A stretch of 60,029 nt of DNA from a virus: the UHGV virus genome UHGV-0110462. The stretch is one strand, 5' to 3'. The position numbers were made by a program, and so were the translations under genes. The notes beneath the pieces were generated by a model that was not told the DNA's origin, did not search any database, and saw nothing but the letters and a program-made list of their open reading frames with translations. How positions within the stretch are numbered: the stretch's first letter is position 1; each line of letters begins with the position of its first letter. Below are positions 3,339 to 60,029 of this stretch, piece after piece.

Positions 3339-4100
3339 ATGAAAGCACAAAGAAATTGGATCACACCGGAGGGAAAGTATTTTATCGATTATGAGAACAT
3401 GATGGAGCAGCCACACTTGTTAGTGGCTGGAGCTACCGGATCAGGAAAATCGGTAGTAATTAATGGAATTATCACGACTGCACTGTTCGAAGCACCGTCG
3501 CAAGTACAGTTCATTCTTATCGACCCGAAAAGGGTGGAACTCGTAGACTATAGATATCTTCCGCATACGGTGTTCTATGCATCCGAACCGGCTGAGATGG
3601 TCAGAGGATTGCAGATGGCTATGAATACAATTGAAATGAGATATACACAGATGCAGAGAGCACACGAGAAGAAATACCAGGGAGCGCAGTTGTATGTGAT
3701 TATTGACGAATTAGCGGACTTAATGACAACGAATAAAAAACAAGTCATGCCACTGATTCAACGTATCGCACAAGTAGGACGTGCCGCCGGTGTTCATCTG
3801 ATCTGCGCGACTCAATGTCCGCTCGCAAAGGTAATTCCAACAGAAATCAAGGTCAACTTTGATGCCCGTGTGGGACTGCGTACAAGGTCAGCGCAGGACA
3901 GCAGAAATATACTAGGCTTTAACGGTTGCGAGGATTTACCGCGATACGGACAGGCATATTATATGAATCCTGATAGCGGAGTCAAAAAAATAGTTGTTCC
4001 GATGTATGACAAGTGCGAAACATGGCGTTTGATTAATCACTGGATGCAGCAGCGCCCACCGAAAAAGAAAGGATTCTTCGAAAGATTGTTTGGAATGTAA
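3339..4100 (+). CDS. FtsK/SpoIIIE-family DNA translocase ATPase domain protein
   Basis: Walker A VAGATGSGKSV and Walker B LYVIIDELAD. Family-typical sequence IDPKRVEL...LICATQCP. Confidence 0.8.
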   Translation: MKAQRNWITPEGKYFIDYENMMEQPHLLVAGATGSGKSVVINGIITTALFEAPSQVQFILIDPKRVELVDYRYLPHTVFYASEPAEMVRGLQMAMNTIEMRYTQMQRAHEKKYQGAQLYVIIDELADLMTTNKKQVMPLIQRIAQVGRAAGVHLICATQCPLAKVIPTEIKVNFDARVGLRTRSAQDSRNILGFNGCEDLPRYGQAYYMNPDSGVKKIVVPMYDKCETWRLINHWMQQRPPKKKGFFERLFGM

Positions 4101-5508: not shown

Positions 5509-5523
5509 ATCTCCCCTCTTTGA

Positions 5524-5775
5524 TTATTTGCAGAAATTATTCAGCAATTCTTCTTTTAACTCCATCTTCCCGGCTCTAAAACCGAGCTTGAAAGCGTAGA
5601 TCAGTGCTTTTGTCTTCCCCATCTCCACTTTGTCGGCAATCGTAACCAATGGCAGCAGGTCTTCCGCAAAGTAATCTGTAACCACACTGTCGCTGATCGG
5701 GCGAATTTTCTCTTCGATATTATTCAGCGTGCTTCTCATATCGCTGACTTTTACTTTAAGCTTCCTTACTACCAT
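5524..5775 (-). CDS. hypothetical protein
   Basis: ORF translationally coupled downstream of the ORF6N gene. Confidence 0.4.
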   Translation of the reverse strand: MVVRKLKVKVSDMRSTLNNIEEKIRPISDSVVTDYFAEDLLPLVTIADKVEMGKTKALIYAFKLGFRAGKMELKEELLNNFCK

Positions 5776-6499
5776 TCTTTTTCTCCTCTCTATGTTCTAC
5801 CTTTAATTCGTAAAGGCCGTCAATCACGGTTTTTGCACGTTCAGCCATGTCAGGGAAGAAGTCAAATAAATCTAATTTGCTTTCAAGTCTCTTTCCTGTC
5901 CCCATAATATATCTGATTTCTGCTTCCTCAAGGTCGAATTTTTCTTCAATGTAAGGAAATATAAGCTCAAACAAAAATTTTTCTTCGACACCGTAGCTGC
6001 TACAAATAGCTGCTATTTTATATCTGTTTTTTCTGTAGAACGTCACTGGTTTAGGTGCCGGGATGCTAGATACTTTCATCCTCTGCGGAACTTCTGCAAT
6101 GTGGTTATTAGCCACATTGGAATCTTTTCTAGCTCTAAAATAAGTATTCACAAGTCTTCTCTGAACGCTCCACGACAATTCGTCTTTGAACGTCTTGACA
6201 GCCATCAGATATCCGCTCTCTGTCAACAAAACAACATCAAGATTAGGGTTGCCAGCACTCTTATCTGAATTCGGTACGTAATACGTACTGAACTCTGACA
6301 TCGTAACTGTAAAGTAATCTTCGCCCTTAATAAAATGTTCCTTATGACTGTTGAAGTTTCTCTTAGCTGTGCCAGACGGTCTCTGGTGAACTTCATCAAT
6401 GTCCTTGAAAGTAACTACTCTCTGTCCTTTGTATTCTCTGATCGGTAATACTATTTCACTTACTGCTAAATTCTCTTTTGCCATCTTCTTATCCTCCAT
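5756..6499 (-). CDS. ORF6N-domain phage antirepressor-like protein
   Basis: ORF6N-like N-terminus: GQRVVTFKDIDEVHQRPSGTAKRNFNSHKEHFIKGEDYF. Confidence 0.65.
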   Translation of the reverse strand: MEDKKMAKENLAVSEIVLPIREYKGQRVVTFKDIDEVHQRPSGTAKRNFNSHKEHFIKGEDYFTVTMSEFSTYYVPNSDKSAGNPNLDVVLLTESGYLMAVKTFKDELSWSVQRRLVNTYFRARKDSNVANNHIAEVPQRMKVSSIPAPKPVTFYRKNRYKIAAICSSYGVEEKFLFELIFPYIEEKFDLEEAEIRYIMGTGKRLESKLDLFDFFPDMAERAKTVIDGLYELKVEHREEKKNGSKEA

Positions 6500-6657
6500 A
6501 TCAAATTACACTGCTGCCTTTGCTCTTCCTATTCCATCAATCCTTTTGTGAAAATATAAATGGCTCTCAAGAATTTTGCGTTATCCATTTTATTCACCAT
6601 CTGTGCAATTCTTCGTCTGTACCATCTATTTTCTTCGCATCTATCAACGTCTTTCAC

Positions 6658-6849
6658 TTATTTTTCCCCCTTAGACATCATTATAAAATCATACTTTGCT
6701 GCGTACATTTTACAATATTCTGCAAGTTCGGCAAGACTGGTATAGCAGACAAGATTGTCCGCAATGTAATGGAGAATTGCTCTGTTGTCCTCTGGCTTCA
6801 TGATATTCACTTCTAAGTTAATTTCCTGCATAATAAAAACTCCTTTCAA
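6658..6849 (-). CDS. hypothetical small protein
   Basis: ORF only. Confidence 0.3.
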   Translation of the reverse strand: MKGVFIMQEINLEVNIMKPEDNRAILHYIADNLVCYTSLAELAEYCKMYAAKYDFIMMSKGEK

Positions 6850-6957
6850 TTAAAAAAATTGTTCTTGAAAGAAGTCCCCGTCTGCATTATAATATTTGCA
6901 GAAGGAAACTTCTAACTTGGTATGGAACATTGCATTGATTGGTAGTCGGGCAATGTT

Positions 6958-7155
6958 CTATTTTTTTGATGATTCTAAGGCTTTTTGGTAAACATTGTTT
7001 ATGCCCTCTCTTATCACTTCCGATTTTGAAAGATTGAGAGTTTCACAACAATATTCAAGCTTTATGCTGTCAAGAAGAGAAATTCTTATTTCCATTCTTT
7101 TTGTTTTTGGATCATCAGTTGGTCTTCCAGTTCTAGGACTCATATTTCTCACCAC
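6958..7155 (-). CDS. ribbon-helix-helix (CopG-like) DNA-binding protein
   Basis: KRMEIRISLLDSIKLEYCCETLNLSKSEVIREGI fits the RHH strand-helix-helix pattern. Confidence 0.45.
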   Translation of the reverse strand: MVRNMSPRTGRPTDDPKTKRMEIRISLLDSIKLEYCCETLNLSKSEVIREGINNVYQKALESSKK

Positions 7156-7249
7156 CTTTTATGTCCGTACATAAATAATAACTTATGTCCGTACAAATGT
7201 CAAGTATTAATTTCAAAATAATAGGGAAGCATCTGCTCCCCCATTAAAT

Positions 7250-7747
7250 TTACTTTGTTCTTTTTAATAGATAATTCCTATCCCAAACTAACACTCCAAG
7301 AATGTTAGCATATTTTACAGCTTCCCCTGAAAAGTATCCATTTGTTATTATTCCGGCATAATCAGCTTTGCAACGAATCTTTTTTGAATAAACATTGCGA
7401 ATATCTTCTTTGCTTATAAGCTTATTCGCTGGAATCTGCTTACAGTTTGCAACATATGAGTAACCTCTAGAAACAATACTTAGGTCTGTATTGTCTATCG
7501 ATTTCATGTTAAAATTGCGGAACCCTCCTGTCAAAAATACATCTGAACAAAATTTTTTAAATTCATTATAGCTAATAGAATCAAAATCTTTCATCTTTTT
7601 TACTCTAAAAACCGCGAAGATTTTTTTTAAAATAAAGTAACAGATGTAAATTACGATTGTAATTTTATAAATATCTGTAAGAGTTTCCCAAAAGCAACCA
7701 CTTATAGCGGAAATAAATAATATTACCCAAATCAATGCTATCACCAC
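7250..7747 (-). CDS. membrane-anchored restriction-endonuclease-fold (Mrr_cat-like, diverged) protein
   Basis: N-terminal TM helix. C-terminus ...YVANCKQ...AGIITNGYFSGEAVKYANILGVLVWD parallels Mrr_cat but is degenerate. Paralog of the upstream gene. Confidence 0.5.
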   Translation of the reverse strand: MVIALIWVILFISAISGCFWETLTDIYKITIVIYICYFILKKIFAVFRVKKMKDFDSISYNEFKKFCSDVFLTGGFRNFNMKSIDNTDLSIVSRGYSYVANCKQIPANKLISKEDIRNVYSKKIRCKADYAGIITNGYFSGEAVKYANILGVLVWDRNYLLKRTK

Positions 7748-7748
7748 C

Positions 7749-8405
7749 CTACAAAGTATTTTCTTCTATTAAACTTATTTCTTTAATAATTTTGAATACA
7801 TCATCCCTGTCAAATAAGATTATACCTGTCTTACTAGCAAGTTCTATAGCCGAATTTGTAAAATATCGATTTGTTATGACAGCTCCGTAATCGCAGTTGT
7901 AAAATTGCTTACCAGCAATAACTTCTTGAACAGCCCTATTTCCAACATTTCCAGAGAATCTTTTGCACTGAAAAGCATATTTGCATTTATTTTTATAAGC
8001 GATTACATCAACTCCCTGATCTCCACTACCTTTTGTAACTTCTACATTATAATATCCCATTTGTACTAATAAATGTCCGCAAAAATGCTCAAATTCATGA
8101 CCGTCCATTAAATCAATATTAGCTTGTGCTATTCTGATTCTTTTATTTTTAGCATTTTGTTTTTTATAATATTCGTTCCATGAATGGAATGGATAATACC
8201 ACCATGCAACAAATATTACAAAATATAATAATAGCCACCATCCTATAAGGAACCACCAAACAGCACTTCTTTTTCTAAATAATGCAAAAATTTTTTCTTG
8301 CTTATTTTCTTTTATTGGGTTATCAAGAGTTAATAACAATTCTCCACAATTAACACAAAACTTATTCGCATTATCATTGAAAGTTCCGCATTTATTACAG
8401 TACAT
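7749..8405 (-). CDS. zinc-ribbon + TM + Mrr_cat restriction endonuclease-domain protein
   Basis: N-terminus CNKCGTFNDNANKFCVNCG (zinc ribbon), then a W-rich TM segment. Mrr_cat motifs: EFEHFCGHLL...GDQGVDVIA...FQCKR...VQEV...GAVITNRYFT. Confidence 0.65.
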   Translation of the reverse strand: MYCNKCGTFNDNANKFCVNCGELLLTLDNPIKENKQEKIFALFRKRSAVWWFLIGWWLLLYFVIFVAWWYYPFHSWNEYYKKQNAKNKRIRIAQANIDLMDGHEFEHFCGHLLVQMGYYNVEVTKGSGDQGVDVIAYKNKCKYAFQCKRFSGNVGNRAVQEVIAGKQFYNCDYGAVITNRYFTNSAIELASKTGIILFDRDDVFKIIKEISLIEENTL

Positions 8406-8590
8406 TATTTTTCTTCCTCTTCACCATCAATGCCAGCAATACCATAATCCCCATTATCCGGCACAACTCTGCTCTTTCTATATCTCATTTCCATCCCACC
8501 AAGAAACGGAGTCTCACTTCCGTACTTCTTAGCCATTTTCTTGTTATGCTTCTCAACCTTTTTTTTGCCTAAAAATTCTTTCAATCCCAT
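8405..8590 (-). CDS. hypothetical small protein
   Basis: ORF only. Confidence 0.3.
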   Translation of the reverse strand: MGLKEFLGKKKVEKHNKKMAKKYGSETPFLGGMEMRYRKSRVVPDNGDYGIAGIDGEEEEK

Positions 8591-8696
8591 TTTCTTTCCC
8601 TCCGTGATAAAACAACAATTTGTTACCCTCTTATCTTACATAAAACTGCCAGCAGATAATTTCTACTGGCAGGAAAAATTTATATTTTTTCAATTG

Positions 8697-9266
8697 TTAC
8701 TGTACGATTTCATCAAGGTCAAGGCTGTATCCCATAACCTCTCCTACATCTGTACACTTTCCTCTTACTGTAATAGTGTCACCAGTTGAAAGAGTCTTCA
8801 CAGCGTTAATGATATCTTCATCTCCATTTGTGTAGCACTGAACTCCAGTAAGTGCAAAGTCATCATCTTCAGGAAGAATACTAATGTATGATGAGTCGCT
8901 ATCTATATTTGAAAGTTTTCCTGTAATTTCAAGATACTTGTCTTTGTACTCATCAGAAGCTGCTGCTGCATTCTTGTCAAGAGCATCCACCATGTCACCT
9001 ATAGAAACCTGTGTATACTCAATTGTTTCTTCCTGTTTAGCATCTGTGGCAGATTTACTGTTTGAATCACTCTTTGCTGTGGAATCGTCTGATCCACCAC
9101 CGCCCATAGCAGCTCCGATAATTCCAATCACTACAATTGCAATGATAATCCATTTCAGCTTGCCACCCTGTTTCTTTCTACAATTCGGACAAACCTTTGC
9201 TTTCTTTGGTATTTCTGACTGACAATGCTTGCAAATTTTTGTTCCTGTGTTTTTTGAGTTTCCCAT
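8697..9266 (-). CDS. zinc-ribbon membrane protein with extracytoplasmic domain
   Basis: CKHCQSEIPKKAKVCPNCRKKQ zinc ribbon. TM IIAIVVIGIIGAAMG, then a Gly/Ser linker and a C-terminal domain. Confidence 0.5.
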   Translation of the reverse strand: MGNSKNTGTKICKHCQSEIPKKAKVCPNCRKKQGGKLKWIIIAIVVIGIIGAAMGGGGSDDSTAKSDSNSKSATDAKQEETIEYTQVSIGDMVDALDKNAAAASDEYKDKYLEITGKLSNIDSDSSYISILPEDDDFALTGVQCYTNGDEDIINAVKTLSTGDTITVRGKCTDVGEVMGYSLDLDEIVQ

Positions 9267-9563
9267 AATCCTTTTTTCCTTTCTTTCGATATACTGTAAT
9301 TGTATTACATTCTTTTTAAAAACTCAATAGTTTGCATGAAAAAGCACGGATCAACCGTGCAATTTCCGTTACCAAAATATTATTCTTATAGTGTGGATTA
9401 TGCAGCCATGTCAAACAAATCTAAAATAAACTTTCTTCCAATGCTATCGATGACCTCATTTGAAATGACCCCATCTTTTTAAGATACCCAGTTGTTTACT
9501 CCATCTTTCAATCATTTAACAATCAAAGCTACTGTGTTTTACCGTAGCCCTATTTAAATCAAT

Positions 9564-10301
9564 CTATAAAGCAATGCTCATCTGTGAATTCTCGCTAGAA
9601 ATCAGATCATCAAGGAAAATTGGTGGATTGTAGCTCTCAACCATAGTAAGAACCTGTTCGCACTGGTTGCGCTTAATCGCCTTATAGGTTGGTACTCCAA
9701 ACTGTCTACGAACATCACGGTGCAAGTCCTGATACAGCTTCGTTCTCAGTGAGGAATTCTTATAAGCATTGCTGTTTTTACCGCCTAAAACCGCGACTCC
9801 TTTCTTCTTGACTGCTTCGGTGATTTTATCAATCTCAATTGCTAAGAGGGGCATGTCGTTCTTGAAGTCTTCCAGCTGTTTTTCTACAACATTTACTTTT
9901 TGTTCAACCTGTGTAACTCTTTTGTCAACTACAATTATCGCTTTTAATTCTGTAGACAAAGAATCAAGGTCAACAAATTCTCTTTTATTAAAATAGTTAT
10001 CAACCAGATAATCATATACTTCCCAAGCCTTATCTGTATTCAATGACTTTGCGTGAAGCAATGCTCCTTTTTCTGTCCAAAGGTATAATTTATTGAGATT
10101 GTTTGGCAAATCGTGATTTTCACGAAACGCCCTTAATTCATCTCCGGATAAACAAATGAAGTGTTTACCTTCAACATATCTATCTTTGTTATGGTTGAAG
10201 TTGTATGAAATTGTCTTGTTATCAGTTCCATACGCTTCTGCGATCTGCTGTGTTGTTAAAACTCTATTGTTGTTGTATTCTGTTACTTTTAAATCGTTCA
10301 T
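9564..10301 (-). CDS. ORF6N-domain phage antirepressor-like protein
   Basis: ORF6N signature: LTTQQIAEAYGTDNKTISYNFNHNKDRYVEGKHF. RBS AAGGAG upstream. Confidence 0.65.
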   Translation of the reverse strand: MNDLKVTEYNNNRVLTTQQIAEAYGTDNKTISYNFNHNKDRYVEGKHFICLSGDELRAFRENHDLPNNLNKLYLWTEKGALLHAKSLNTDKAWEVYDYLVDNYFNKREFVDLDSLSTELKAIIVVDKRVTQVEQKVNVVEKQLEDFKNDMPLLAIEIDKITEAVKKKGVAVLGGKNSNAYKNSSLRTKLYQDLHRDVRRQFGVPTYKAIKRNQCEQVLTMVESYNPPIFLDDLISSENSQMSIAL

Positions 10302-10574
10302 GCCAAAACATCTCCTTAATTCCTTGTTTAAATGTTAAACAGTTTGCAAGTTTCGAGTTCTCCGTAATTTATGCACATTCCCATTTTGGGAAAAGCCTTT
10401 AAATTCAAGTATTTTCTTTTACATTTAGCATATACATGGCAACTCTTATTTTTTTGTCAGAAATAGCAGAGCCTAACTCAATAGACTCTGCACCGTTCAA
10501 TTCGTAACCAGCCGCATCACTGGTCGGTATTCCGTTTTTCGTATCCAGCACCATCACCGGAGTATATGAGAGAA

Positions 10575-10741
10575 ATAAAAAAGCCTGAGTACGCTGAGAG
10601 TAAAGACAGTATTTTGTACTATCCTTTTTCTCAGTATACTCAGGCTGACGATTCCTGACCCTTGTTGATCTGAATCCCATTCGTTCTTCACATATTTCTC
10701 GTCGCTGATATTATTATAACACAAATGGAATTAATAAACAA
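10575..10741 (-). promoter_or_regulatory. promoter + conserved 5' leader + intrinsic terminator (copy B of duplicated leader element)
   Basis: Minus strand: -35 TTGTTT (10736-10741), 17-nt spacer, TGTG-extended -10 TATAAT (10713-10718). Conserved leader with TCAGG/CCTGA stem (10640-10658) around loop AATCGTCAG. Terminator hairpin plus U6 (10575-10646). Lies about 270 nt upstream of the ORF6N gene at 10301. Confidence 0.6.
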
Positions 10742-11060
10742 CACGAGCAAGCAAAATATTTTCAATCAAATCAGTCAATGAAATAATTTCTCTCGCATGG
10801 TCAGAAATGAAATTGCAAAGGCGTTCCTCTGTTTCTATAGGAAGAGAAATTCCGTAGGTCATACAAACAGCGTGAGTCAGCTCATGGGAAAGGACGCGGT
10901 CAAACATGGTATCTGAGAGACGATTAGACAGATAGATTGTATTGGTCATTCTGTCAGTAACTCCGAGCGTGTAAACACCGTCTGACCGTCTCAGCAGCTC
11001 ACTGGATGGATTTTCATATTGGACATGCCATAATTCATCATTGATATAGAAATTCATCAA
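10731..11060 (-). CDS. putative zinc metallopeptidase (HExxH; ImmA/IrrE- or SprT-like)
   Basis: VLSHELTHAVCMTYGI contains an HExxH motif. Confidence 0.5.
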   Translation of the reverse strand: MMNFYINDELWHVQYENPSSELLRRSDGVYTLGVTDRMTNTIYLSNRLSDTMFDRVLSHELTHAVCMTYGISLPIETEERLCNFISDHAREIISLTDLIENILLARVVY

Positions 11061-11101
11061 ATCACCTACTTAAAAAGGGAAGGCTTTCGCCCTCCCGTGA
11101 A

Positions 11102-11743
11102 TTACATCTTATTGATGAGAGTCGCAAGCTTTGATTTTGCAAGAGTTCTTTCTTCCGGCGTCATGTCAGAAATCAGATCAGTCACGTCTTTTCCAAGTTC
11201 TGTCATGTAAGATTCAAGTTCATGCATCTTCGTGTCCTTGTCCTTGTGTGCATCTCTTGCGTCTGTATAGCCACGGCGAGCCATATCATAGCGACTGGAT
11301 GATTTAGGCTCTGTGTAATACATTCTTCCGTGCTTGTCTCTGTCCATGTCACGATCAGTGTCCCAGTCACGATACATCTCAGGAGTCATGTGCCAATAAG
11401 GCGGCTCATTGTATCCTCTTCTCATTCCGTGACCTTTCGGAGCGAATCTGCCGGACTTATAACGGTATTCGTCATAATATCTCCGGGCATCCTCTTCACC
11501 GTACTGGTCTTTGAACATTTTCAGAAGATACTTCTTTTCCTCTTTTTCATCTTCCTCAGCTTCTTCCATAGCTTTTGAGATTCTTGCATGATATTCGGCA
11601 TCTGCAAGGTCTTTAATCATATCGATGACCTGTCCCATCTCACATGTATTAACGTTTTCAATACCGCTAGAAAGTTCAGAACAAGCGCACTCAGAAAGTT
11701 TTTCAATCAATTCATGGATATGTTTGATATGCATAATATTCAC
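11102..11743 (-). CDS. hypothetical charged protein
   Basis: ORF with strongly charged composition: EEAEEDEKEEKKY...RDMDRDKHGRMYY. Confidence 0.45.
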   Translation of the reverse strand: MNIMHIKHIHELIEKLSECACSELSSGIENVNTCEMGQVIDMIKDLADAEYHARISKAMEEAEEDEKEEKKYLLKMFKDQYGEEDARRYYDEYRYKSGRFAPKGHGMRRGYNEPPYWHMTPEMYRDWDTDRDMDRDKHGRMYYTEPKSSSRYDMARRGYTDARDAHKDKDTKMHELESYMTELGKDVTDLISDMTPEERTLAKSKLATLINKM

Positions 11744-11746
11744 CTC

Positions 11747-12169
11747 CTAAGCTTCACGAGTCACAACAAGGTTAGCGTTTGCCACGTTGATTGCCTGTGT
11801 ACTTGTGTTCTCAACAGCAATATTTACACAACATCCGGCCGGCACGTCAATATAGATACCAGAAGATACATTGTTATACTGGTCAACTGCTGCCGGAGTA
11901 CTAATCATCTGAGAAGAAAGAACAGGCTCTCCGCTGATTGCGATAGCCAGTGAGATTGCTCCAGCTGTTCCTCCGGTCGGTACTGCGATATTTGCTGAAA
12001 AATCAACAAAATAGCGCGCTCTACACTGATTTGTGATTCCTCTCAGAGTCACGATTCCAGAACCCTCACGATGTTTGATGCAGTTATTTCCTTGAACTGC
12101 CGTGTTTGTAAAGACAACATTTCCGTTCACTGCTACTTCTTGAGCAGAAACAGCTACATATTCAGCCAT
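11747..12169 (-). CDS. hypothetical protein, BclA C-terminal-domain-like (tentative)
   Basis: Ala/Val/Asn/Thr-rich beta-type sequence ...VNIAVENTSTQAINVANANLVVT, reminiscent of exosporium BclA CTD. Recalled from memory, not searched. Confidence 0.35.
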   Translation of the reverse strand: MAEYVAVSAQEVAVNGNVVFTNTAVQGNNCIKHREGSGIVTLRGITNQCRARYFVDFSANIAVPTGGTAGAISLAIAISGEPVLSSQMISTPAAVDQYNNVSSGIYIDVPAGCCVNIAVENTSTQAINVANANLVVTREA

Positions 12170-12264
12170 AGTATTTTACCTCCATAATTTAAGGGACAAA
12201 CCGTTTGAAGTCTGCCCCTTGTATTCGTAATACTGCTTATAGCAGACATAACATTTAAGTTAAG

Positions 12265-12489
12265 TTACTCATTCGTCTTGGAAAGAATCTCCAAGATTTG
12301 ATTTTGATTGGAAATTATCTTTTCGAGATACTCCCTGTCCTGTCTCTGCAAGGCTCTTAGCAAGTCATCATTAGACGTTTGCTTCTGATCTTGGTCGTAT
12401 CCAATCATCTGCAAGATAACGGAAAAGACGTTCAACATATCAAGAAAAGAGTAGTTTCCGTTTTGATTGTTGGTCATTAACAACCACAT
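12265..12489 (-). CDS. hypothetical small protein
   Basis: ORF only. Confidence 0.3.
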   Translation of the reverse strand: MWLLMTNNQNGNYSFLDMLNVFSVILQMIGYDQDQKQTSNDDLLRALQRQDREYLEKIISNQNQILEILSKTNE

Positions 12490-13256
12490 CCATTACCGCA
12501 TCCGTAATACACATTCGGGTTAGGTACCTGATATGCCGGGATTGGTGTCGGGTTTACAGCATTGATAATCTGATTTGTCTGAGCTGTCATTGCAGTAGTC
12601 AGAAGAGCATTTTGTCTATCCTGTGAAGCTGCAAGTCTCAGATCGTTGTTCTCAGCCTGTAATGTAGCGATCTTATCCTGGCAGAGGTAATCAAGGATTG
12701 CTCTTGTTCCAGCGTTCTGGCTCTCAATGATGTCACGAGTGTTTGTATTCATTGTGTTCTGCAAAGCGCATGTATCCTGTGCCATGTCAAATCTTACCTG
12801 AGAAATAGCTTCTCTGTTCTGGCAGCAACAATCGGCAAGCTGTGCCTGTAATGCATTCTGACCCTGCATCAGAGCAACATTTGTTGTGTTGAATCCCTGC
12901 TGTGTCTGGTATCCAAGATTGCAGATTGCGTTGTCAATTCCGTGGAATCCATTCATCAGAGCTGTATTCTGAGCGTAAAAGCCATCACACAATCCATTGT
13001 TGATTCCGTCCAGTTTTCCAACAATGTTCTGAGTATCGAATCCCCTCTGAATGTCAGCCTGTGTAGCTACTGTTGCTGCATAACCGCCACCATTTCCGAA
13101 TCCGTTACCAAATCCATTGTTTCCCCAGCCAAAAAGCAGTGCGAATACGACGATGATCCATAACCATCCCCCGTCTCCCCAACCAGCTCCATCAGCGTAA
13201 CCGCCTGTTGCTGGCATGACTGGCATTGTAAAAGGTGTGTTAGTTGAGTTAAACAT
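12477..13256 (-). CDS. Gly-rich / Cys-rich membrane protein of unknown function
   Basis: N-terminus GWGDGGWLWIIVVFALLFGWGNNGFGNGFGNGGG (TM plus Gly repeats). Q/N/A-rich body with CCCQN. C-terminus YYGCGNGCGC. Confidence 0.45.
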   Translation of the reverse strand: MFNSTNTPFTMPVMPATGGYADGAGWGDGGWLWIIVVFALLFGWGNNGFGNGFGNGGGYAATVATQADIQRGFDTQNIVGKLDGINNGLCDGFYAQNTALMNGFHGIDNAICNLGYQTQQGFNTTNVALMQGQNALQAQLADCCCQNREAISQVRFDMAQDTCALQNTMNTNTRDIIESQNAGTRAILDYLCQDKIATLQAENNDLRLAASQDRQNALLTTAMTAQTNQIINAVNPTPIPAYQVPNPNVYYGCGNGCGC

Positions 13257-13323
13257 ATTAGTTCCTCCTTAATTTTATTCATAAAGAGGTTTCTCGAGTT
13301 TCTGTGCACAAACCTCTAATATG

Positions 13324-13542
13324 CTATAATCCAAACTTACTTCTTATTTGATTCATAAGTTCATCAACATTTGTTCCTTGTTCTTTCCCAAGGTTCCTTG
13401 CCAACTGCTCTATTCCTTTCATGTCTCCTTTTTGAGCCATATCAAGAGCGTTCTTGGCCATGGGGTTGTTCATTACTTGATTATTCCCCATCATCTGTTT
13501 TAAAAACTGCTGAGGATTTCCGAAAAGGTTAATTGGGTTCAT
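13324..13542 (-). CDS. hypothetical small protein
   Basis: ORF only. Confidence 0.35.
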   Translation of the reverse strand: MNPINLFGNPQQFLKQMMGNNQVMNNPMAKNALDMAQKGDMKGIEQLARNLGKEQGTNVDELMNQIRSKFGL

Positions 13543-14042
13543 TCTCCGTCACCATCCTTTTTGACTGTAGACCGTGTTTTCGGTTTGCTGTTGCTCATAG
13601 AGTTTTCCAGTTCATCAAGCTTACGTCCAAGCTCGTCAAATCTCTTCATAAACGCTTCTGTCGCATCGTCAGATAGCCCTATTTTCATTTCTGATTGAGT
13701 AGACGGTAAATTGTCTGTCTGCTGATTTTGAACAGGCTTAAAGACGATTGTCTGAATAGTTCCGTTGGCAGTCCATGACTTCAAATAGATTTCTGACAAA
13801 TCATTTTTCGGAAACAGTGCATAAGGAGCGTTCATTGGAACGTCACTTGCCTGTATCGTTTCTTGACCATCAACAATGTGACCAATTAGTTGCGGTTGCT
13901 GAATCTGTTGAGGGACCTGTTGCATCTGATTGTAAGCAGGCTGTTGAGCTTGCATCTGTTGAACTGGTTGCTGATATGGAGTTCCGTACCTCTGCTGATT
14001 CTGCTGCAAGTACGGATTTCCAAAATATGGATTCTCGTACAT
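13539..14042 (-). CDS. Q/N/P/Y-rich low-complexity protein; start refined to Met29
   Basis: AGGAGG 8 nt upstream of the internal ATG (MYENPYFGNPYLQQNQQ...). Prion-like Q-rich N-terminal half. Confidence 0.5.
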   Translation of the reverse strand: MYENPYFGNPYLQQNQQRYGTPYQQPVQQMQAQQPAYNQMQQVPQQIQQPQLIGHIVDGQETIQASDVPMNAPYALFPKNDLSEIYLKSWTANGTIQTIVFKPVQNQQTDNLPSTQSEMKIGLSDDATEAFMKRFDELGRKLDELENSMSNSKPKTRSTVKKDGDGE

Positions 14043-14052
14043 GATAGACCTC

Positions 14053-14229
14053 CTATCTTTCACACACATCCTCAAGTATCTCTTCTCTTGAAGCGAACGG
14101 TTTATCAGTGTAGAATCTTCTGTCAATCACATCTTCTACGATATGAACAACCGTTGACTGATATTCAAGCGGGATGCCATTGAGACGATCATCACTGAAT
14201 ATCTGAACAAGTATCGCATCTGAAAACAT
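14053..14229 (-). CDS. small hypothetical acidic protein (58 aa)
   Basis: GGAGG RBS (ggaggcggtcaaATG). Translates to MFSDAILVQIFSDDRLNG... Not in the ORF track because under 60 aa. Confidence 0.35.
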   Translation of the reverse strand: MFSDAILVQIFSDDRLNGIPLEYQSTVVHIVEDVIDRRFYTDKPFASREEILEDVCER

Positions 14230-14329
14230 TTGACCGCCTCCTTATGGTTAAATTTTCGCATAAAAAAAGAGAAGCAAGTTTTCACTTTCTTCTCATATTT
14301 ATGTCATATAGTGGCTCTATTTTATTTAC

Positions 14330-14611
14330 TATTTTGCGTACACACTCTCGCTGTGTACCGTACACACTTTTTACACACTTTTGCTGTGTAAATTCGTGTA
14401 AATACGTGTAATTTTATGAAATTCAGTGTGTATGCCAAATTGCTTGAAACCCTTATAAACTCAGTGTTAGAACGGTGTTCCGTACAGATCATAAGGTGTC
14501 ACCTGATATACGTAATAAGTTTACAAAGTTTAGTACAAAATGCTCCAAAAATCCTTTATTTTAAGGCTTTTTCATGTTGACAAGTGTGTAACTTACACAC
14601 CATTTACACAC
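14330..14611. other. candidate prophage attL / integrase arm-site region
   Basis: TTACACAC/GTACACAC occurs 5 times directly (14340-14380 and 14585-14605). Its inverse GTGTAA occurs 3 times (14380-14410). Lies immediately distal to the integrase gene. Confidence 0.4.
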
Positions 14612-15802
14612 TTATGAAATTTTTTGTTTAAAATCCACGATATTATTTGGCGTATTATCTACCAGTTTTTCAATATCATTAAAAGATTTTTCTTTCGTAA
14701 CATGAGTGTATAAATCAAGAGTCATTTTAACACTTGCATGACCTAAATATGATTGAACAACTTTAGGATCGATTTCATGTTCAAAGCATCGAGTGGCAAA
14801 CGTATGCCTAAATGTATGTCCACTAAAATTTTTGAACAAATCATTGTTCGGTCGCAACAAATTTATTTCTCTTATAACTGCATGTATAGCATCTGCATAT
14901 ATCACTGAATTTATCGGAGTATTGTACTTTGTAGTGAATAAAAAATCATTCTGTTCTTTTGGTCTTTTGCTTGATACTATCGCTTTTTGTTGAATCTGTC
15001 TTTCAAGATATATTTTACAAACGCTGTTTATCGGAACTTTCCTATAACTCTGCTTTGTTTTTGGTTCTTCTAGGTGAAAAGTCTTTCTGGTATCTGTAAG
15101 ATACTTTTGGTACACTAACGTTTTGTTTACATCAATGAACCCATTTTCAAAATCGATATCTGATTCTGTCAACGCAAAAAGTTCTCCTGGTCTCATTCCA
15201 GTATTTACTGCAACATTAAACATATTATCATAAAATGTATTTTTGCAATATTCAAAGAAAATGTTCTGTTCTTCAAGAGTAAGAGATTTTGCTTTAGATT
15301 CCTTCTTGTCTATAACTTTGGTTCCTAAGACCGGGTTTTTTGAAATCAGATTATCTTCAAGAGCTCTAGCCATTAGATCTGATAATATGACTTTGATTTT
15401 ATTTTGCCTTTCATACCCATATCCATTTGTATGAGCCAATGTTATTATTCTTTGAATATCTGATTTAACCAAAGAATTTATGTTGCGATTTCCTATAAAA
15501 GGTGATATATTCTTATTGTATATGTGAGTGTATTCTCTAAGAGTATTAGGGCGTACACTCTTTTCTTTATATATCTTTATCCATTGATTAAACCAATTAT
15601 CCAATTTTACGGTTTCTCTTACACTTACAAATGTTTCATTTTCTGCAATTTTAACAGCAAGATCTTTTCTTAATTCAGATAACTTTTTTGAATATATTGT
15701 CTTTGAATTGCCAAACCTATCTTTATATCTTCCTTGATAGGTTCCGTTTTTTCTTTGAGTTATACCAACTCCTAGTTCTTTTCCTTTTAAATCCTTTCCC
15801 AT
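14612..15802 (-). CDS. int: tyrosine-type site-specific integrase
   Basis: C-terminal catalytic region RPGELFAL...HTFRHTFATRCFEHEIDPKVVQSYLGHASVKMTLDLYTHV carries the R...H-x-x-R...Y motifs. Confidence 0.9.
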   Translation of the reverse strand: MGKDLKGKELGVGITQRKNGTYQGRYKDRFGNSKTIYSKKLSELRKDLAVKIAENETFVSVRETVKLDNWFNQWIKIYKEKSVRPNTLREYTHIYNKNISPFIGNRNINSLVKSDIQRIITLAHTNGYGYERQNKIKVILSDLMARALEDNLISKNPVLGTKVIDKKESKAKSLTLEEQNIFFEYCKNTFYDNMFNVAVNTGMRPGELFALTESDIDFENGFIDVNKTLVYQKYLTDTRKTFHLEEPKTKQSYRKVPINSVCKIYLERQIQQKAIVSSKRPKEQNDFLFTTKYNTPINSVIYADAIHAVIREINLLRPNNDLFKNFSGHTFRHTFATRCFEHEIDPKVVQSYLGHASVKMTLDLYTHVTKEKSFNDIEKLVDNTPNNIVDFKQKIS

Positions 15803-15879
15803 TATTTTTTTGCTCCTTCCATTTACAAAAGAGCCACTATACAGCTACATATTACTATATAAAGGCTCATATTTCAATG

Positions 15880-16284
15880 TTAGACTTCAATCGTTTTTTC
15901 AATATACTTCTCAAATTCTTTTCTTTTAACTAATCTTTTACCTTTTCCAACGCAAAAAAGAAACGGGCATCCTGGTTCGTTCAGCATGGAACTTATCTTA
16001 TTAACACCAATGTTGCTATACTGCGAAGCTTCTTCCACTGTGAGCATTACCTTTTCCCATACAGGAATACTATTATCTTTCAATTTTACTACCTCCATCA
16101 CTTTGGACATTATACTTTTTACTCGTCTGTTTACGGTTGATTCTGAAACAGAAAGTTTTTCCGAAATTTCAATTATGCTTTTTCCTTTTGATAACATAAT
16201 AAAAATTCTCAATTCTTCATCGGTAAAGTTACATTCTTTTATGTAATAATTTATCTCGCTTTTTACACATTTACATAACTTCAT
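15880..16284 (-). CDS. excisionase-family DNA-binding protein with N-terminal LuxR/sigma70-r4-like HTH (start refined to MKLCKC)
   Basis: C-terminus MLTVEEASQYSNIGVNKISSMLNEPGCPFLFCVGKGKRLVKRKEFEKYIE matches the excisionase/HTH_17 pattern. N-terminus LSVSESTVNRRVKSI is HTH-like. RBS AGAGGGA present. Confidence 0.55.
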   Translation of the reverse strand: MKLCKCVKSEINYYIKECNFTDEELRIFIMLSKGKSIIEISEKLSVSESTVNRRVKSIMSKVMEVVKLKDNSIPVWEKVMLTVEEASQYSNIGVNKISSMLNEPGCPFLFCVGKGKRLVKRKEFEKYIEKTIEV

Positions 16285-16518
16285 ACGCGATCCCTCTTTC
16301 AAGGGAGTGGCTAAACCACTATGTCCCGGCTCAAATCCACTCCCATACGTTCTATTCATTCATGTGGCAACTCACTTAAATATTCTCCTTGTTTCTTCAC
16401 AAGGTTAGCTGCTTCATATGGTTTGGTTCTGAAACGTCTAACAGCTTTTACGCTAGGTGCGCTACTCGCAAGCTTTCCGTGTTTTATATCTCCACGAAAC
16501 TTCATTGATTTTGATCCT

Positions 16519-26863: not shown

Positions 26864-27613
26864 TCACGCTGCCTGCTCAATCACCGGAACATAACCATGT
26901 TTTTTCAATTCTTCGTAAAGAAATAGGCGACCTTTCTGTGTCCATTCAGTCTGCATTGCAACATCCGGTCTTCCATCAGTCCTTGTAATATCAATCGTCC
27001 GGCTGTGAACATATCCTTTATTTTGATATTTGGAATATAGAACCCATTGACCGCCAACCTTGTACTGAATTTTTAATTCCTTAAGAATTTGATTGAACTT
27101 TCTTCCGCTCATGCCATAGTCTTTTGCAATCTGAGTGATAGTTACCAATGACTTTGATTGAAGAATCTTATCTACATAATTTGCTTTCGGCTGTAATTCC
27201 GTTATAATCTTCTGTTGTTCAATAACCTGTTCTCCGAGAAATTTGCATTGAGCTTTCACAGACTCAATCGTTCTATCAGCCATCTTCAATGCCCTAGCCA
27301 TGATCTGCTCCGGTGTGTTCCAGGCTTTTTCCAAGTCCAAGAAATATTGTCTGATTTCTTTTCCCTCCGGTGTTCTCTGAATCATGCAAATTTGTTTCGC
27401 CATATCAACGGAAATGTTATATTCTGTTGAAGGTCTACCGCCTGTACTTTCAGACATTTTTGTCCAAAAGTCTTTTCCAACTTCAAAACCATAATCACAC
27501 ATTCTGTCTATCCACTTCTTAAATGGTGTTTCAATATGAAGTTGTTCATGCAAATCTCTTGCCGATACAGTTGGTTCCTCTGTTTCAAAATTGATTTTTA
27601 GTAATTCGTTCAT
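26864..27613 (-). CDS. phage antirepressor (Rha-like N-terminal domain + KilA-C/ORF6C-like C-terminus); start refined to MNELLKINF
   Basis: AGGAGAAAG RBS before the ATG at 27613. Rha-like N-terminus LLKINFETEEPTVSARDLHEQLHIETPFKKWIDRM. Confidence 0.65.
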   Translation of the reverse strand: MNELLKINFETEEPTVSARDLHEQLHIETPFKKWIDRMCDYGFEVGKDFWTKMSESTGGRPSTEYNISVDMAKQICMIQRTPEGKEIRQYFLDLEKAWNTPEQIMARALKMADRTIESVKAQCKFLGEQVIEQQKIITELQPKANYVDKILQSKSLVTITQIAKDYGMSGRKFNQILKELKIQYKVGGQWVLYSKYQNKGYVHSRTIDITRTDGRPDVAMQTEWTQKGRLFLYEELKKHGYVPVIEQAA

Positions 27614-27845
27614 CTTTCTCCTTTCTGTTGTGATATAATTCATACATCTGATAAATGGAGTTACAGAAATATTGGCTTCGTTACTGCAAGAAACGAAAAG
27701 GCGAATCCCAACATGATATTCATAAGTAGTCCAGCGATTCTCCAACCATGTTCACTTCTTCCGTGCCAGTATGAAATTACGCAAAAAATAGTATTCATAA
27801 TCCATATTGGCACGATGTTTAGAATATTCATACTATCTCCTTTCT

Positions 27846-57057: not shown

Positions 57058-57129
57058 ACAAGCGTAACTGGAATCGAACCAGTACATCAGAAGTCAAAGT
57101 CCTGTGCTCTACCTTTAAGCTATACGCCC
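57058..57129 (-). tRNA. tRNA-Gln(UUG)-like
   Basis: Hand-folded. D-arm GCTT/GAGC. Anticodon arm CAGGA-CTTTGAC-TTCTG, anticodon UUG. T-arm ACTGG-TTCGATT-CCAGT. Acceptor needs two G-U pairs at positions 1-2. Confidence 0.55.
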
Positions 57130-57288
57130 TTAGCTGCAAGAAATTTACCTCGAAAGCCGTAAGGAATCCTTGCACTGCTACGGTTCTTTATAATATTGGA
57201 GTTTATTATATGATCGATAAACCACGTCTTTTATTAACAAAACGTTAGTTTCCGAGCTTCAGCGAACTCCGCAGCTAAAACACTGAAT

Positions 57289-57348
57289 TGCCGTGGTCGG
57301 ATTCGAACCGACACATTTCACACGTTCTACCAATTGAACTACACGGCA
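57289..57348 (-). tRNA. truncated tRNA-like element (acceptor, D-arm and T-arm present; anticodon arm missing)
   Basis: GCCGTGT-A-GTTCAATTGGTAGAAC-GTGTGAAATGT-GTCGGTTCGAATCCGAC-CACGGCA. Only 11 nt lie between the D- and T-arms. Confidence 0.45.
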
Positions 57349-57406
57349 AACCGAAAGGAAAAAATCTTATGAAAGGATGACTCTCCAAGTTCACCACGCT
57401 TGGAGA

Positions 57407-57480
57407 AGCTACCGCCCGGATTCGAACCGGGACCCTGCTGATTCGTAATCAACTGCTCTATCCATTTGAGCTATGATAGC
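57407..57480 (-). tRNA. tRNA-Arg(ACG)
   Basis: Hand-folded. D-arm GCTC-AAATGGATA-GAGC. Anticodon loop TTACGAA. T-arm CCCGG-TTCGAAT-CCGGG. No encoded CCA. Confidence 0.6.
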
Positions 57481-57613
57481 ATTTCACGGTTTTTGAAATC
57501 TTTTAATCACTTTAAACTTATGGGAATCAAAACTAATCTAAAGGAAAATGGCATATTTACTGCACATAGGGCGCGTACATGATGGGTGTTTCTGAGAACC
57601 GTGAAACTCAGAA

Positions 57614-57696
57614 CGCCGCATGGAGGATTCGAACCTCCAAGTCGTTTCCGACCGAATGCCTAGCAAGCATCTCCAATGCCTTTATGGGAATGCGGC
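57614..57696 (-). tRNA. tRNA-Ser(GCU), type II with long variable arm
   Basis: Acceptor GCCGCAT/ATGCGGC. Anticodon arm GATGC-TTGCTAG-GCATT. Variable hairpin GTCGGAAACGAC. T-arm GGAGG-TTCGAAT-CCTCC. Confidence 0.6.
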
Positions 57697-60021: not shown

Positions 60022-60029
60022 CGCATACA

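Follow-up and report, generated by a model that had tools for sequence, protein, structure and literature searches.

The virus genome UHGV-0110462 (60,029 nucleotides; this whole stretch is called the window here) carries on its minus strand a three-gene operon, s61-mrrA-mrrB, whose central product, MrrA, is predicted to be a catalytically competent DNA endonuclease of the Mrr family, with a PD-(D/E)XK domain tied to a membrane anchor. MrrA is accompanied by a small soluble protein, s61, and by a divergent, membrane-anchored paralog, MrrB. The three genes form a self-contained accessory operon (moron) of low GC content, which lies in a variable slot of a temperate siphovirus of about 60 kb of Mediterraneibacter faecis. 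We tentatively propose that the operon encodes a prophage defence or exclusion nuclease in which catalytic MrrA would act with auxiliary MrrB and s61 at the inner face of the membrane. This is the best-supported role; one like that of toxin–antitoxin (TA) or abortive infection (Abi) systems, or one in the lytic cycle, is possible.

MrrA, MrrB and s61

An earlier reading made from the letters alone (the sequence-only reading) had assigned to the open reading frame (ORF) 7749..8405 a zinc ribbon, a Trp-rich transmembrane (TM) helix and a conserved Mrr_cat core, and profile searches bore this out. The 218-residue MrrA matches Pfam Mrr_cat PF04471 over residues 98-206 (E = 3.9e-30, 104.8 bits, for a gathering cutoff of 21), contains all three motifs GDQGVDVIA, FQCKR and VITNRYFT, and divides into a zinc ribbon (residues 1-25), a Trp-rich anchor (47-72), a basic stalk helix (73-99) and the Mrr_cat PD-(D/E)XK domain (100-217). 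Zinc-ribbon matches to residues 2-24, where the cysteines are spaced C3-x2-C6...C17-x2-C20, were below threshold, and the hydrophobic stretch 47-72 holds six Trp residues. MrrA has all the residues that an alignment of 33 homologues shows to be invariant (E106, D129, D133, Q146-C147-K148, N156, Q160, E161 and N179), as well as the nearly invariant T178. The catalytic constellation of a helix Glu, a beta-strand Asp and a (Q/E)-x-K motif is complete, being formed by E106, D133 and Q146-C-K148. The ratio of nonsynonymous to synonymous substitution rates (dN/dS) against the most distant variant is 0.14.

The AlphaFold2 (AF2) model of MrrA, with a predicted local distance difference test score (pLDDT) of 90.8, comprises the zinc ribbon, a single long helix (48-99) and an alpha/beta core. 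Its top Foldseek matches were AspBHI, AF1548 and MspJI, those to AspBHI and MspJI being to their catalytic domains. A search of PDB sequences with the single MrrA protein found nothing, and a profile search of the same sequences found AF1548 and the Mrr-type nuclease of LlaBIII. AspBHI and MspJI provide, with their catalytic domains, the nearest solved folds, and the family is named after Mrr; MrrA could accordingly be a modification-dependent Type IV (Mrr/MspJI-like) enzyme that cuts only incoming DNA that is methylated or otherwise modified. MrrA does share with E. coli Mrr and with MspJI/AspBHI the catalytic fold and the D...Q-x-K variant of the active site, but this structural similarity is limited to the generic catalytic core. 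The Type IV enzymes are soluble proteins with N-terminal DNA-binding domains that read modifications, whereas in MrrA only the zinc ribbon and the anchor precede the nuclease, and Pfam and NCBIfam detected no Mrr_N winged helix, SRA-like or other modification-reading domain there. We therefore regard Type IV restriction as the least probable of the roles considered here.

The next gene (7250..7735, minus strand, 161 amino acids; alternative GTG start at 7747) had been described as a shorter TM paralog with a degenerate and possibly inactive core. The relationship stood: PF04471 was found in both proteins, with MrrB scoring E = 1.7e-7 and 31.8 bits, above the gathering score of 21, and MrrB aligned with MrrA at 24% identity by BLASTP (E = 6e-11) and with a probability of 98.6% by hhalign. 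Its AF2 model (pLDDT 85.8) has the same fold and the same best PDB matches as that of MrrA. The claim of inactivity stood only in part. Position 106 is Lys in all five known variants, and the GSGDQG loop and Q160/E161 are missing, but MrrB keeps Asp or Glu at 133, K148 and T178-N179, the window version having D133 and N-C-K at 146-148. MrrB is degraded yet not obviously dead, and from these residues we consider it probably a non-catalytic or auxiliary partner. A decaying pseudogene was ruled out, as dN/dS against the most distant variant is 0.23 (dS about 1.2) and no variant has a broken frame.

MrrB is confined to the phage lineage of the window. It forms five clusters at 90% identity and, at 50% identity, is represented only once in a set of 1.84 billion clustered proteins, the next match (5e-20) being a generic Mrr_cat protein. 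Within the lineage, conservation of the pair is complete: in MrrA-bearing contigs MrrB lies immediately downstream in 13 of 13 loci, down to identities of 73% for MrrA and 57-60% for MrrB. Outside it the pairing fails, with a second Mrr gene in only one of 78 other phage loci that carry a MrrA-type nuclease (L066), where both copies are canonical. The idea that the tandem pair is a widespread system was rejected on these counts.

The sequence-only reading had taken the two paralogs as the unit and had overlooked s61 (8405..8590, minus strand), a soluble protein of 61 amino acids with a Lys-rich N-terminal half that is the constant companion of MrrA. Of 100 loci, the 12 Mrr-bearing lineage loci whose sequence extends far enough upstream all have it immediately before MrrA, and it appears in none of the others. 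Its 21 clusters all fall within the phage family of the window. The sister phages L182 and L186 have s61 followed by a single canonical multi-TM Mrr_cat protein of 190 amino acids, without MrrB, and s61 is a more constant partner of the nuclease than MrrB is. Like MrrA and MrrB, s61 is under purifying selection (dN/dS 0.45 against the most distant variant). Searches of Pfam, PHROGs, NCBIfam and PADLOC gave no match and no DNA-binding or known antitoxin domain. We regard s61 as a candidate for regulating, inhibiting or assembling the nuclease. An acidic DNA mimic was ruled out, since its C-terminal tail, although acidic in some variants, is basic in L186.

The stop codon of s61 overlaps the ATG of MrrA (TAATG), and a small upstream gene that overlaps the gene of its effector is the classic order of type II TA systems. 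In a module of the Abi or TA type, a toxic MrrA would be restrained by s61, acting like an antitoxin, and/or by MrrB; infection or loss of the prophage would free MrrA to degrade cellular and phage DNA, with the result that the cell dies or the prophage is stabilised. This would agree with the invariable coupling of s61 to a membrane Mrr nuclease, even where MrrB is missing, with the faster evolution of s61 (dN/dS 0.45 versus 0.14), and with the use of Mrr_cat domains as effectors in the abortive-type systems Lamassu and Avs. However, the lack of an antitoxin or DNA-binding domain in s61 and the poor conservation of its acidic tail fit an antitoxin badly, a simple toxin needs no membrane tether, and most phage homologues of MrrA are single genes with no obvious small partner. 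We consider a module of this kind unlikely.

Organisation and distribution of the operon

All genes discussed here are on the minus strand. In order of transcription, a superinfection exclusion (Sie)-like gene (9266..8697) and a terminator-like hairpin (8672..8646) are followed by s61 (8590..8405), mrrA (8405..7749), mrrB (7735 or 7747..7250), a second terminator-like hairpin (7241..7223), and the promoter (7203..7175) and coding sequence (7143 or 7155..6958) of a gene of the ribbon-helix-helix (RHH) type. Both hairpins were found by a pattern scan; the first, a strong one with an 11-bp stem followed by a T run, terminates the Sie-like gene and sets the cassette's 5' limit, and the second ends the s61-mrrA-mrrB operon. 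MrrA and MrrB had been called translationally coupled. They are indeed tightly linked but do not overlap, as public gene calls place the start of MrrB at TTG 7735, 13 nucleotides past the MrrA stop, with the Shine-Dalgarno sequence GGTGGTGA inside the gap. An Rfam scan of positions 6000-10000 matched no family, and no plus-strand ORF of the region had support.

The operon is preceded by a conserved leader (8591..8638), which contains a -10-like TAAGAT (8638..8633), the palindrome AACAAATTGTT (8624..8614) and the Shine-Dalgarno sequence GGAGGG (8603..8598). When five lineage variants were aligned, the leader was nearly invariant from TAAGAT to the ATG, with two variable positions. The variants L003, L009 and L021 have a full promoter at the leader, TTGAGT-16-TGGTAAGAT, and in the window the terminator of the Sie-like gene stands in place of the operon's -35 element. 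The leader is a putative promoter.

The cassette differs in composition from its surroundings, with a GC content of 31.2% for the trio against 38.6% for the genome, and its presence is patchy. Among relatives with at least 95% identity, the trio is present in two (L102, L108) and absent from seven (L104-107, L109, L110, L112). When the phage family was scanned with a 213-residue protein (11102..11743) as anchor, only three of the 65 family loci with enough downstream sequence had a Mrr gene of any kind. In other relatives the slot is occupied by zinc ribbon-TM-OB (Sie-like) proteins, by a zinc ribbon-TM protein with a DUF4352-like ectodomain (L113), or by a small zinc ribbon-TM protein with a single multi-TM Mrr_cat protein (L178). 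The Sie-like gene and the trio move independently of each other: the former precedes the operon in the window, follows it in L003 and L009 and is missing from L006. Such variable presence in a slot shared with exclusion genes is a feature of defence genes and morons.

These data also bear on whether the operon could serve the lytic cycle, with a nuclease that degrades the host chromosome, scavenges nucleotides or clears competing DNA during replication. In favour of this, the operon runs in the same direction as the long leftward transcription of the phage, its neighbours include antirepressor genes, which act at induction, and the window version has no -35 element of its own. On the other hand, near-identical phages do without the cassette, which is therefore dispensable; homologues elsewhere lie in lysogeny modules beside integrase or repressor genes and not in replication or lysis modules, and a membrane anchor would hinder access to the nucleoid. 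A lytic role seems to us somewhat less likely still than an Abi or TA module.

Membrane topology, wider family and proposed role

The nuclease subfamily of MrrA comprises more than 136 protein clusters and gave 279 matches in IMG/VR; genome contigs scanned with MrrA gave only zinc-ribbon look-alikes. TM segments are present in more than half of 120 homologues, the usual anchor being two N-terminal TM helices. Some homologues have an N-terminal zinc ribbon, and many have a DNA-binding FtsK-gamma winged helix between the TM helices and the nuclease. Gut phages commonly carry membrane-anchored Mrr_cat proteins as single genes, typically beside an integrase or a repressor, and in unrelated phages the gene is found within the lysogeny module or at the prophage end. 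In Roseburia phage Jekyll the order is Xre, a 'toxin' gene, Mrr and integrase; in L026 it is an ImmA-like peptidase, Mrr and a serine recombinase; and in L065 and L023 the Mrr_cat gene adjoins a tyrosine integrase. In L064 it lies between a zinc ribbon-bPH membrane protein and an endolysin. The 'putative restriction endonuclease' of Jekyll belongs to the same nuclease subfamily as MrrA, with 59% identity over the domain, the same succession of zinc ribbon, TM and Mrr_cat, and a place in a lysogeny module. Unlike mrrA, such gut-phage genes are single, partnered by neither s61 nor MrrB, and they usually encode two full TM helices.

In 56 of 63 homologues the K/R-rich flank of the last TM segment is the one toward the Mrr domain (4.1 versus 0.8 K/R), which points to a cytoplasmic nuclease across the family. 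For MrrA itself the signals are mixed. Its 25-residue, Trp/Tyr-rich segment has K/R on both sides, which makes it an outlier in the family and could let the nuclease face outward, and AF2 draws a single straight helix through residues 48-99. MrrA might accordingly be an outward-facing membrane nuclease that, like the competence or entry nucleases of Gram-positive bacteria, degrades extracellular or entering DNA at the outer face. A continuous membrane-spanning helix would separate the zinc ribbon from the nuclease in this arrangement, and the three K/R residues directly before the anchor favour an N-terminus inside. Opposed to it is the family-wide charge bias, which puts the Mrr domain inside, and so is MrrB: its N-terminal hydrophobic segments are followed by a strongly basic flank that precedes the domain, both in the two-segment form and in the one-segment form of L009. 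Moreover, when the MrrA anchor was aligned with relatives that have a zinc ribbon and two TM helices, and that keep ribbon and nuclease on the same side, it resembled TM1 and TM2 fused, with the external loop lost. Such a collapsed TM1+TM2 is compatible with a re-entrant anchor that would leave ribbon and nuclease both in the cytoplasm. We infer that the nuclease of MrrA faces the cytoplasm and consider the outward orientation improbable, nearly as much so as Type IV restriction.

Partnership between an active and a degenerate Mrr_cat domain is suggested by a second group of proteins. Eight of the 149 representatives retrieved with the MrrB profile have two Mrr_cat domains in one membrane protein. 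Six of these eight combine one canonical domain with one that lacks E106 (the position holds I, K, T or H), and some of the degenerate domains have lost more; the canonical plus degenerate proteins are P0126, P0127, P0145, P0209, P0213 and P0268, an architecture not previously described, as far as we found. This Rosetta-stone pattern suggests that active and degenerate domains may work together. MrrB does not descend with the degenerate domains of the fused proteins from an ancient 'B-type' lineage, a possibility ruled out because it scores no closer to them than to canonical domains. The degenerations are therefore independent, and since MrrB is not specifically related to the fused degenerate domains, the pairing of canonical and degenerate domains has arisen repeatedly.

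Taken together, the low-GC cassette, its patchy presence among near-identical phages, the slot that otherwise holds Sie-like proteins, and the homologues beside integrase and ImmA-type genes fit a defence or exclusion setting. We propose that, in the lysogen, the MrrA endonuclease would be held on the cytoplasmic face of the membrane, where membrane-anchored MrrB, which lacks the helix glutamate and the Gly-rich loop, would pair with it as a non-catalytic or auxiliary subunit. The small soluble partner s61, presumably co-translated with MrrA, would serve as regulator, inhibitor or assembly factor. Such a complex would cut foreign DNA at its entry into the cell and so shield the lysogen and its prophage, and the membrane tether would keep the nuclease off the chromosome.

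The nearest mechanistic precedent that we can offer, by analogy, is SNIPE (PD-lambda-1), a membrane-bound GIY-YIG nuclease that cuts DNA during injection and becomes toxic once its TM segment is removed (Saxton et al., Nature 2026, PMC13190303). The likeness is one of logic: SNIPE has a constitutive membrane anchor, a cytoplasmic catalytic domain, a variable N-terminus and sequestration against self-cleavage. MrrA has a membrane anchor, with the cytoplasmic side favoured by the charge bias of the family and its own charges being ambiguous. The two are non-homologous. SNIPE is a single gene with a GIY-YIG domain and a required DUF4041, and Pfam matched neither of these here.

The nearest validated architecture is that of Epona, a single-cassette anti-phage system of the chromosomal integron of Vibrio cholerae, which has Mrr_cat and a two-TM domain and is active in E. 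coli (bioRxiv 10.1101/2024.07.02.601686). Compared by description, both systems join Mrr_cat to a short membrane-spanning module on a mobile cassette. Epona, however, is a single gene with a two-TM 'holin' domain in a Gram-negative integron, whereas the operon described here has three genes, for s61, for a nuclease with a zinc ribbon and one 25-residue anchor segment, and for a degenerate paralog, all in a Firmicute prophage. Searches with PADLOC profiles, which had been suggested as a check, gave matches of MrrA to ZorD (2.8e-21), to four PDC-S02 profiles (best 2.5e-17) and to LmuA, in each case through the nuclease domain only. The PDC-S02 match is not full-length, as only profile positions 181-307 of 334 align, and PDC-S02 is itself an unvalidated single-gene candidate.

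Several observations weigh against a defence or exclusion nuclease as we propose it. Of PDC-S02, the one representative for which a test is reported did not protect E. coli B against T4, T5 or T7, and the topology of MrrA is itself ambiguous. The overlap of a small upstream gene with the effector gene also fits a TA layout, and the window operon has no recognisable -35 element. In addition, MrrB may still be active, as it retains D133 and K148 and its relatives have D-C-K at 146-148. The suggestion of a defence or exclusion module made in the sequence-only reading is thus upheld as far as the accessory setting goes, while the activity that it presumes stays at the level of a prediction.

A bolder version of the proposal makes MrrA the active and MrrB the inactive half of an obligate heterodimer, gated by s61, that would cut phage DNA at injection on the inner membrane face. 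It would be an independently arisen, PD-(D/E)XK, Gram-positive and prophage-borne counterpart of SNIPE, and the pairing of canonical and degenerate domains would be the functional core of widespread gut-phage exclusion nucleases. In this full form we hold the idea to be unlikely, about as much so as the Abi or TA module. Membrane-anchored Mrr_cat nucleases are abundant in temperate phages of human-gut Clostridia, mostly in the lysogeny module, and none has been characterised. If they do act as entry-point nucleases, the principle of SNIPE, which distinguishes self from non-self by location, would extend to another nuclease fold, to Gram-positive hosts and to competition between phages in the gut. 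The three-gene form is a natural dissection, with catalytic subunit, degenerate subunit and small partner apart, and sister phages with s61 and one nuclease, or with no cassette, are ready-made controls.

Neighbouring genes and the phage genome

Upstream of the operon, in a separate cassette, the zinc-ribbon membrane protein noticed at 8697..9266 (minus strand) was confirmed as such. It has a zinc ribbon, a TM segment and an extracellular tRNA_anti-like OB-fold, and matches Pfam tRNA_anti-like (4.8e-17) and the PHROG 'superinfection exclusion Sie-like' (4.8e-18). In a group of Jekyll-like Roseburia phages (L036, L037, L042, L043, L048 and L050, at about 5512-7205), a zinc ribbon-TM2-Mrr_cat gene directly precedes one for a tRNA_anti-like membrane protein that is akin to the window's Sie-like protein. 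This is a second, independent co-occurrence of Mrr_cat and Sie-like membrane proteins.

The RHH-type repressor gene (6958..7203 with its promoter, minus strand; ATG at 7143 or GTG at 7155, ending at 6958) is adjacent to the operon and outside the module. The sequence-only reading had placed it upstream of the Mrr pair; with all genes on the minus strand it is downstream, behind the hairpin 7241..7223. Its promoter-like site, the near-consensus TTGACA-17-TATTAT (7203..7175), is bracketed by two exact 13-nucleotide direct repeats, TGTACGGACATAA (7195..7183 and 7171..7159, minus strand), which are putative operators. The CopG-like identity given to the product is weakly supported by PHROG 876 'transcriptional repressor' (1.7e-15) and by faint NCBIfam matches to RHH families, with no match in Pfam. 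The gene heads a unit of RHH, orf63 and an ORF6N antirepressor (5756..6499), which spans 5756..7203. In sister phages free of the cassette, RHH is kept in five of seven, in the order Sie-like, RHH, orf63, antirepressor; L105 and L109 gave no RHH match. Because it is retained in phages without Mrr genes, we assign it to a unit of the phage backbone, and a role as regulator of the Mrr pair was ruled out on this ground and by its downstream position behind a terminator with a promoter and operators of its own.

In the immI region of P22, the RHH repressors Arc and Mnt control ant. The RHH neighbour described here resembles immI in its small RHH-type repressor, its promoter overlapping repeated operators and the antirepressor gene that comes next. 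It differs in that the antirepressor is of the ORF6N type and the RHH assignment is weak, and this unit is outside the Mrr module. The phage has three antirepressor-type genes, at 26864..27745, 9564..10301 and 5756..6499. A near-consensus, promoter-like TTGAAA-17-TATAAT on the plus strand (6865..6893; 11 of 12 matches) points antisense into the RHH gene; it could serve as a convergent regulatory promoter, or it may have arisen by chance in AT-rich DNA.

The window corresponds to the ENA contig L002, with 100% identity, in which position 1 joins directly to position 60029, and the source contig of 60,156 bp exceeds 60,029 by an assembler overlap of 127 bp. This makes the window the complete, circularly permuted genome of a temperate phage, a circle of 60,029 bp. 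It holds terminase, structural and lysis genes, repressors, a Tn916-type integrase with Xis, and three tRNA genes (Gln-TTG, Arg-ACG and Ser-GCT, at 57059..57696, upstream of the terminase genes). An integrated form is seen in L003 (L003:2090-3010), where the phage abuts the 3' end of metA with an overlap of about 50 nucleotides; the junction corresponds to window position ~14518, just past the integrase, and the operon lies about 6 kb from attL in the prophage. The flanking metA protein exactly matches a Mediterraneibacter faecis protein and the flanking AI-2E transporter clusters with M. faecis proteins, and M. faecis (Lachnospiraceae) is therefore the host. Megablast of the region against GenBank phages gave trivial matches only.

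The attP site lies just beyond the integrase gene, at about 14518..14611. The integration module has been swapped among sister phages, with a Tn916-type tyrosine integrase and Xis at 14612..16359 of the window and a large serine recombinase at the same position in L009 (L009:2319-3662). The phage family is abundant in human-gut viromes: the 213-residue anchor protein had 344 matches in IMG/VR, on contigs mostly of 57-62 kb. The first genes inside attL (10405..14300) encode a run of unusual proteins that are conserved across the phage family and have no Pfam assignment. They include a Gln-rich protein of 195 residues, a Gly/Cys-rich protein of 259 residues with one TM segment (PHROG 16490, function unknown), a 140-residue protein resembling a beta-rich surface domain, a charged 213-residue protein and a small HExxH/ImmA-like protein. 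Finally, a stand-alone FtsK/SpoIIIE-type ATPase of 253 residues (3339..4100, plus strand; PHROG 1358, 2.2e-66) is encoded on the strand opposite to nearly all genes and is kept in all relatives.

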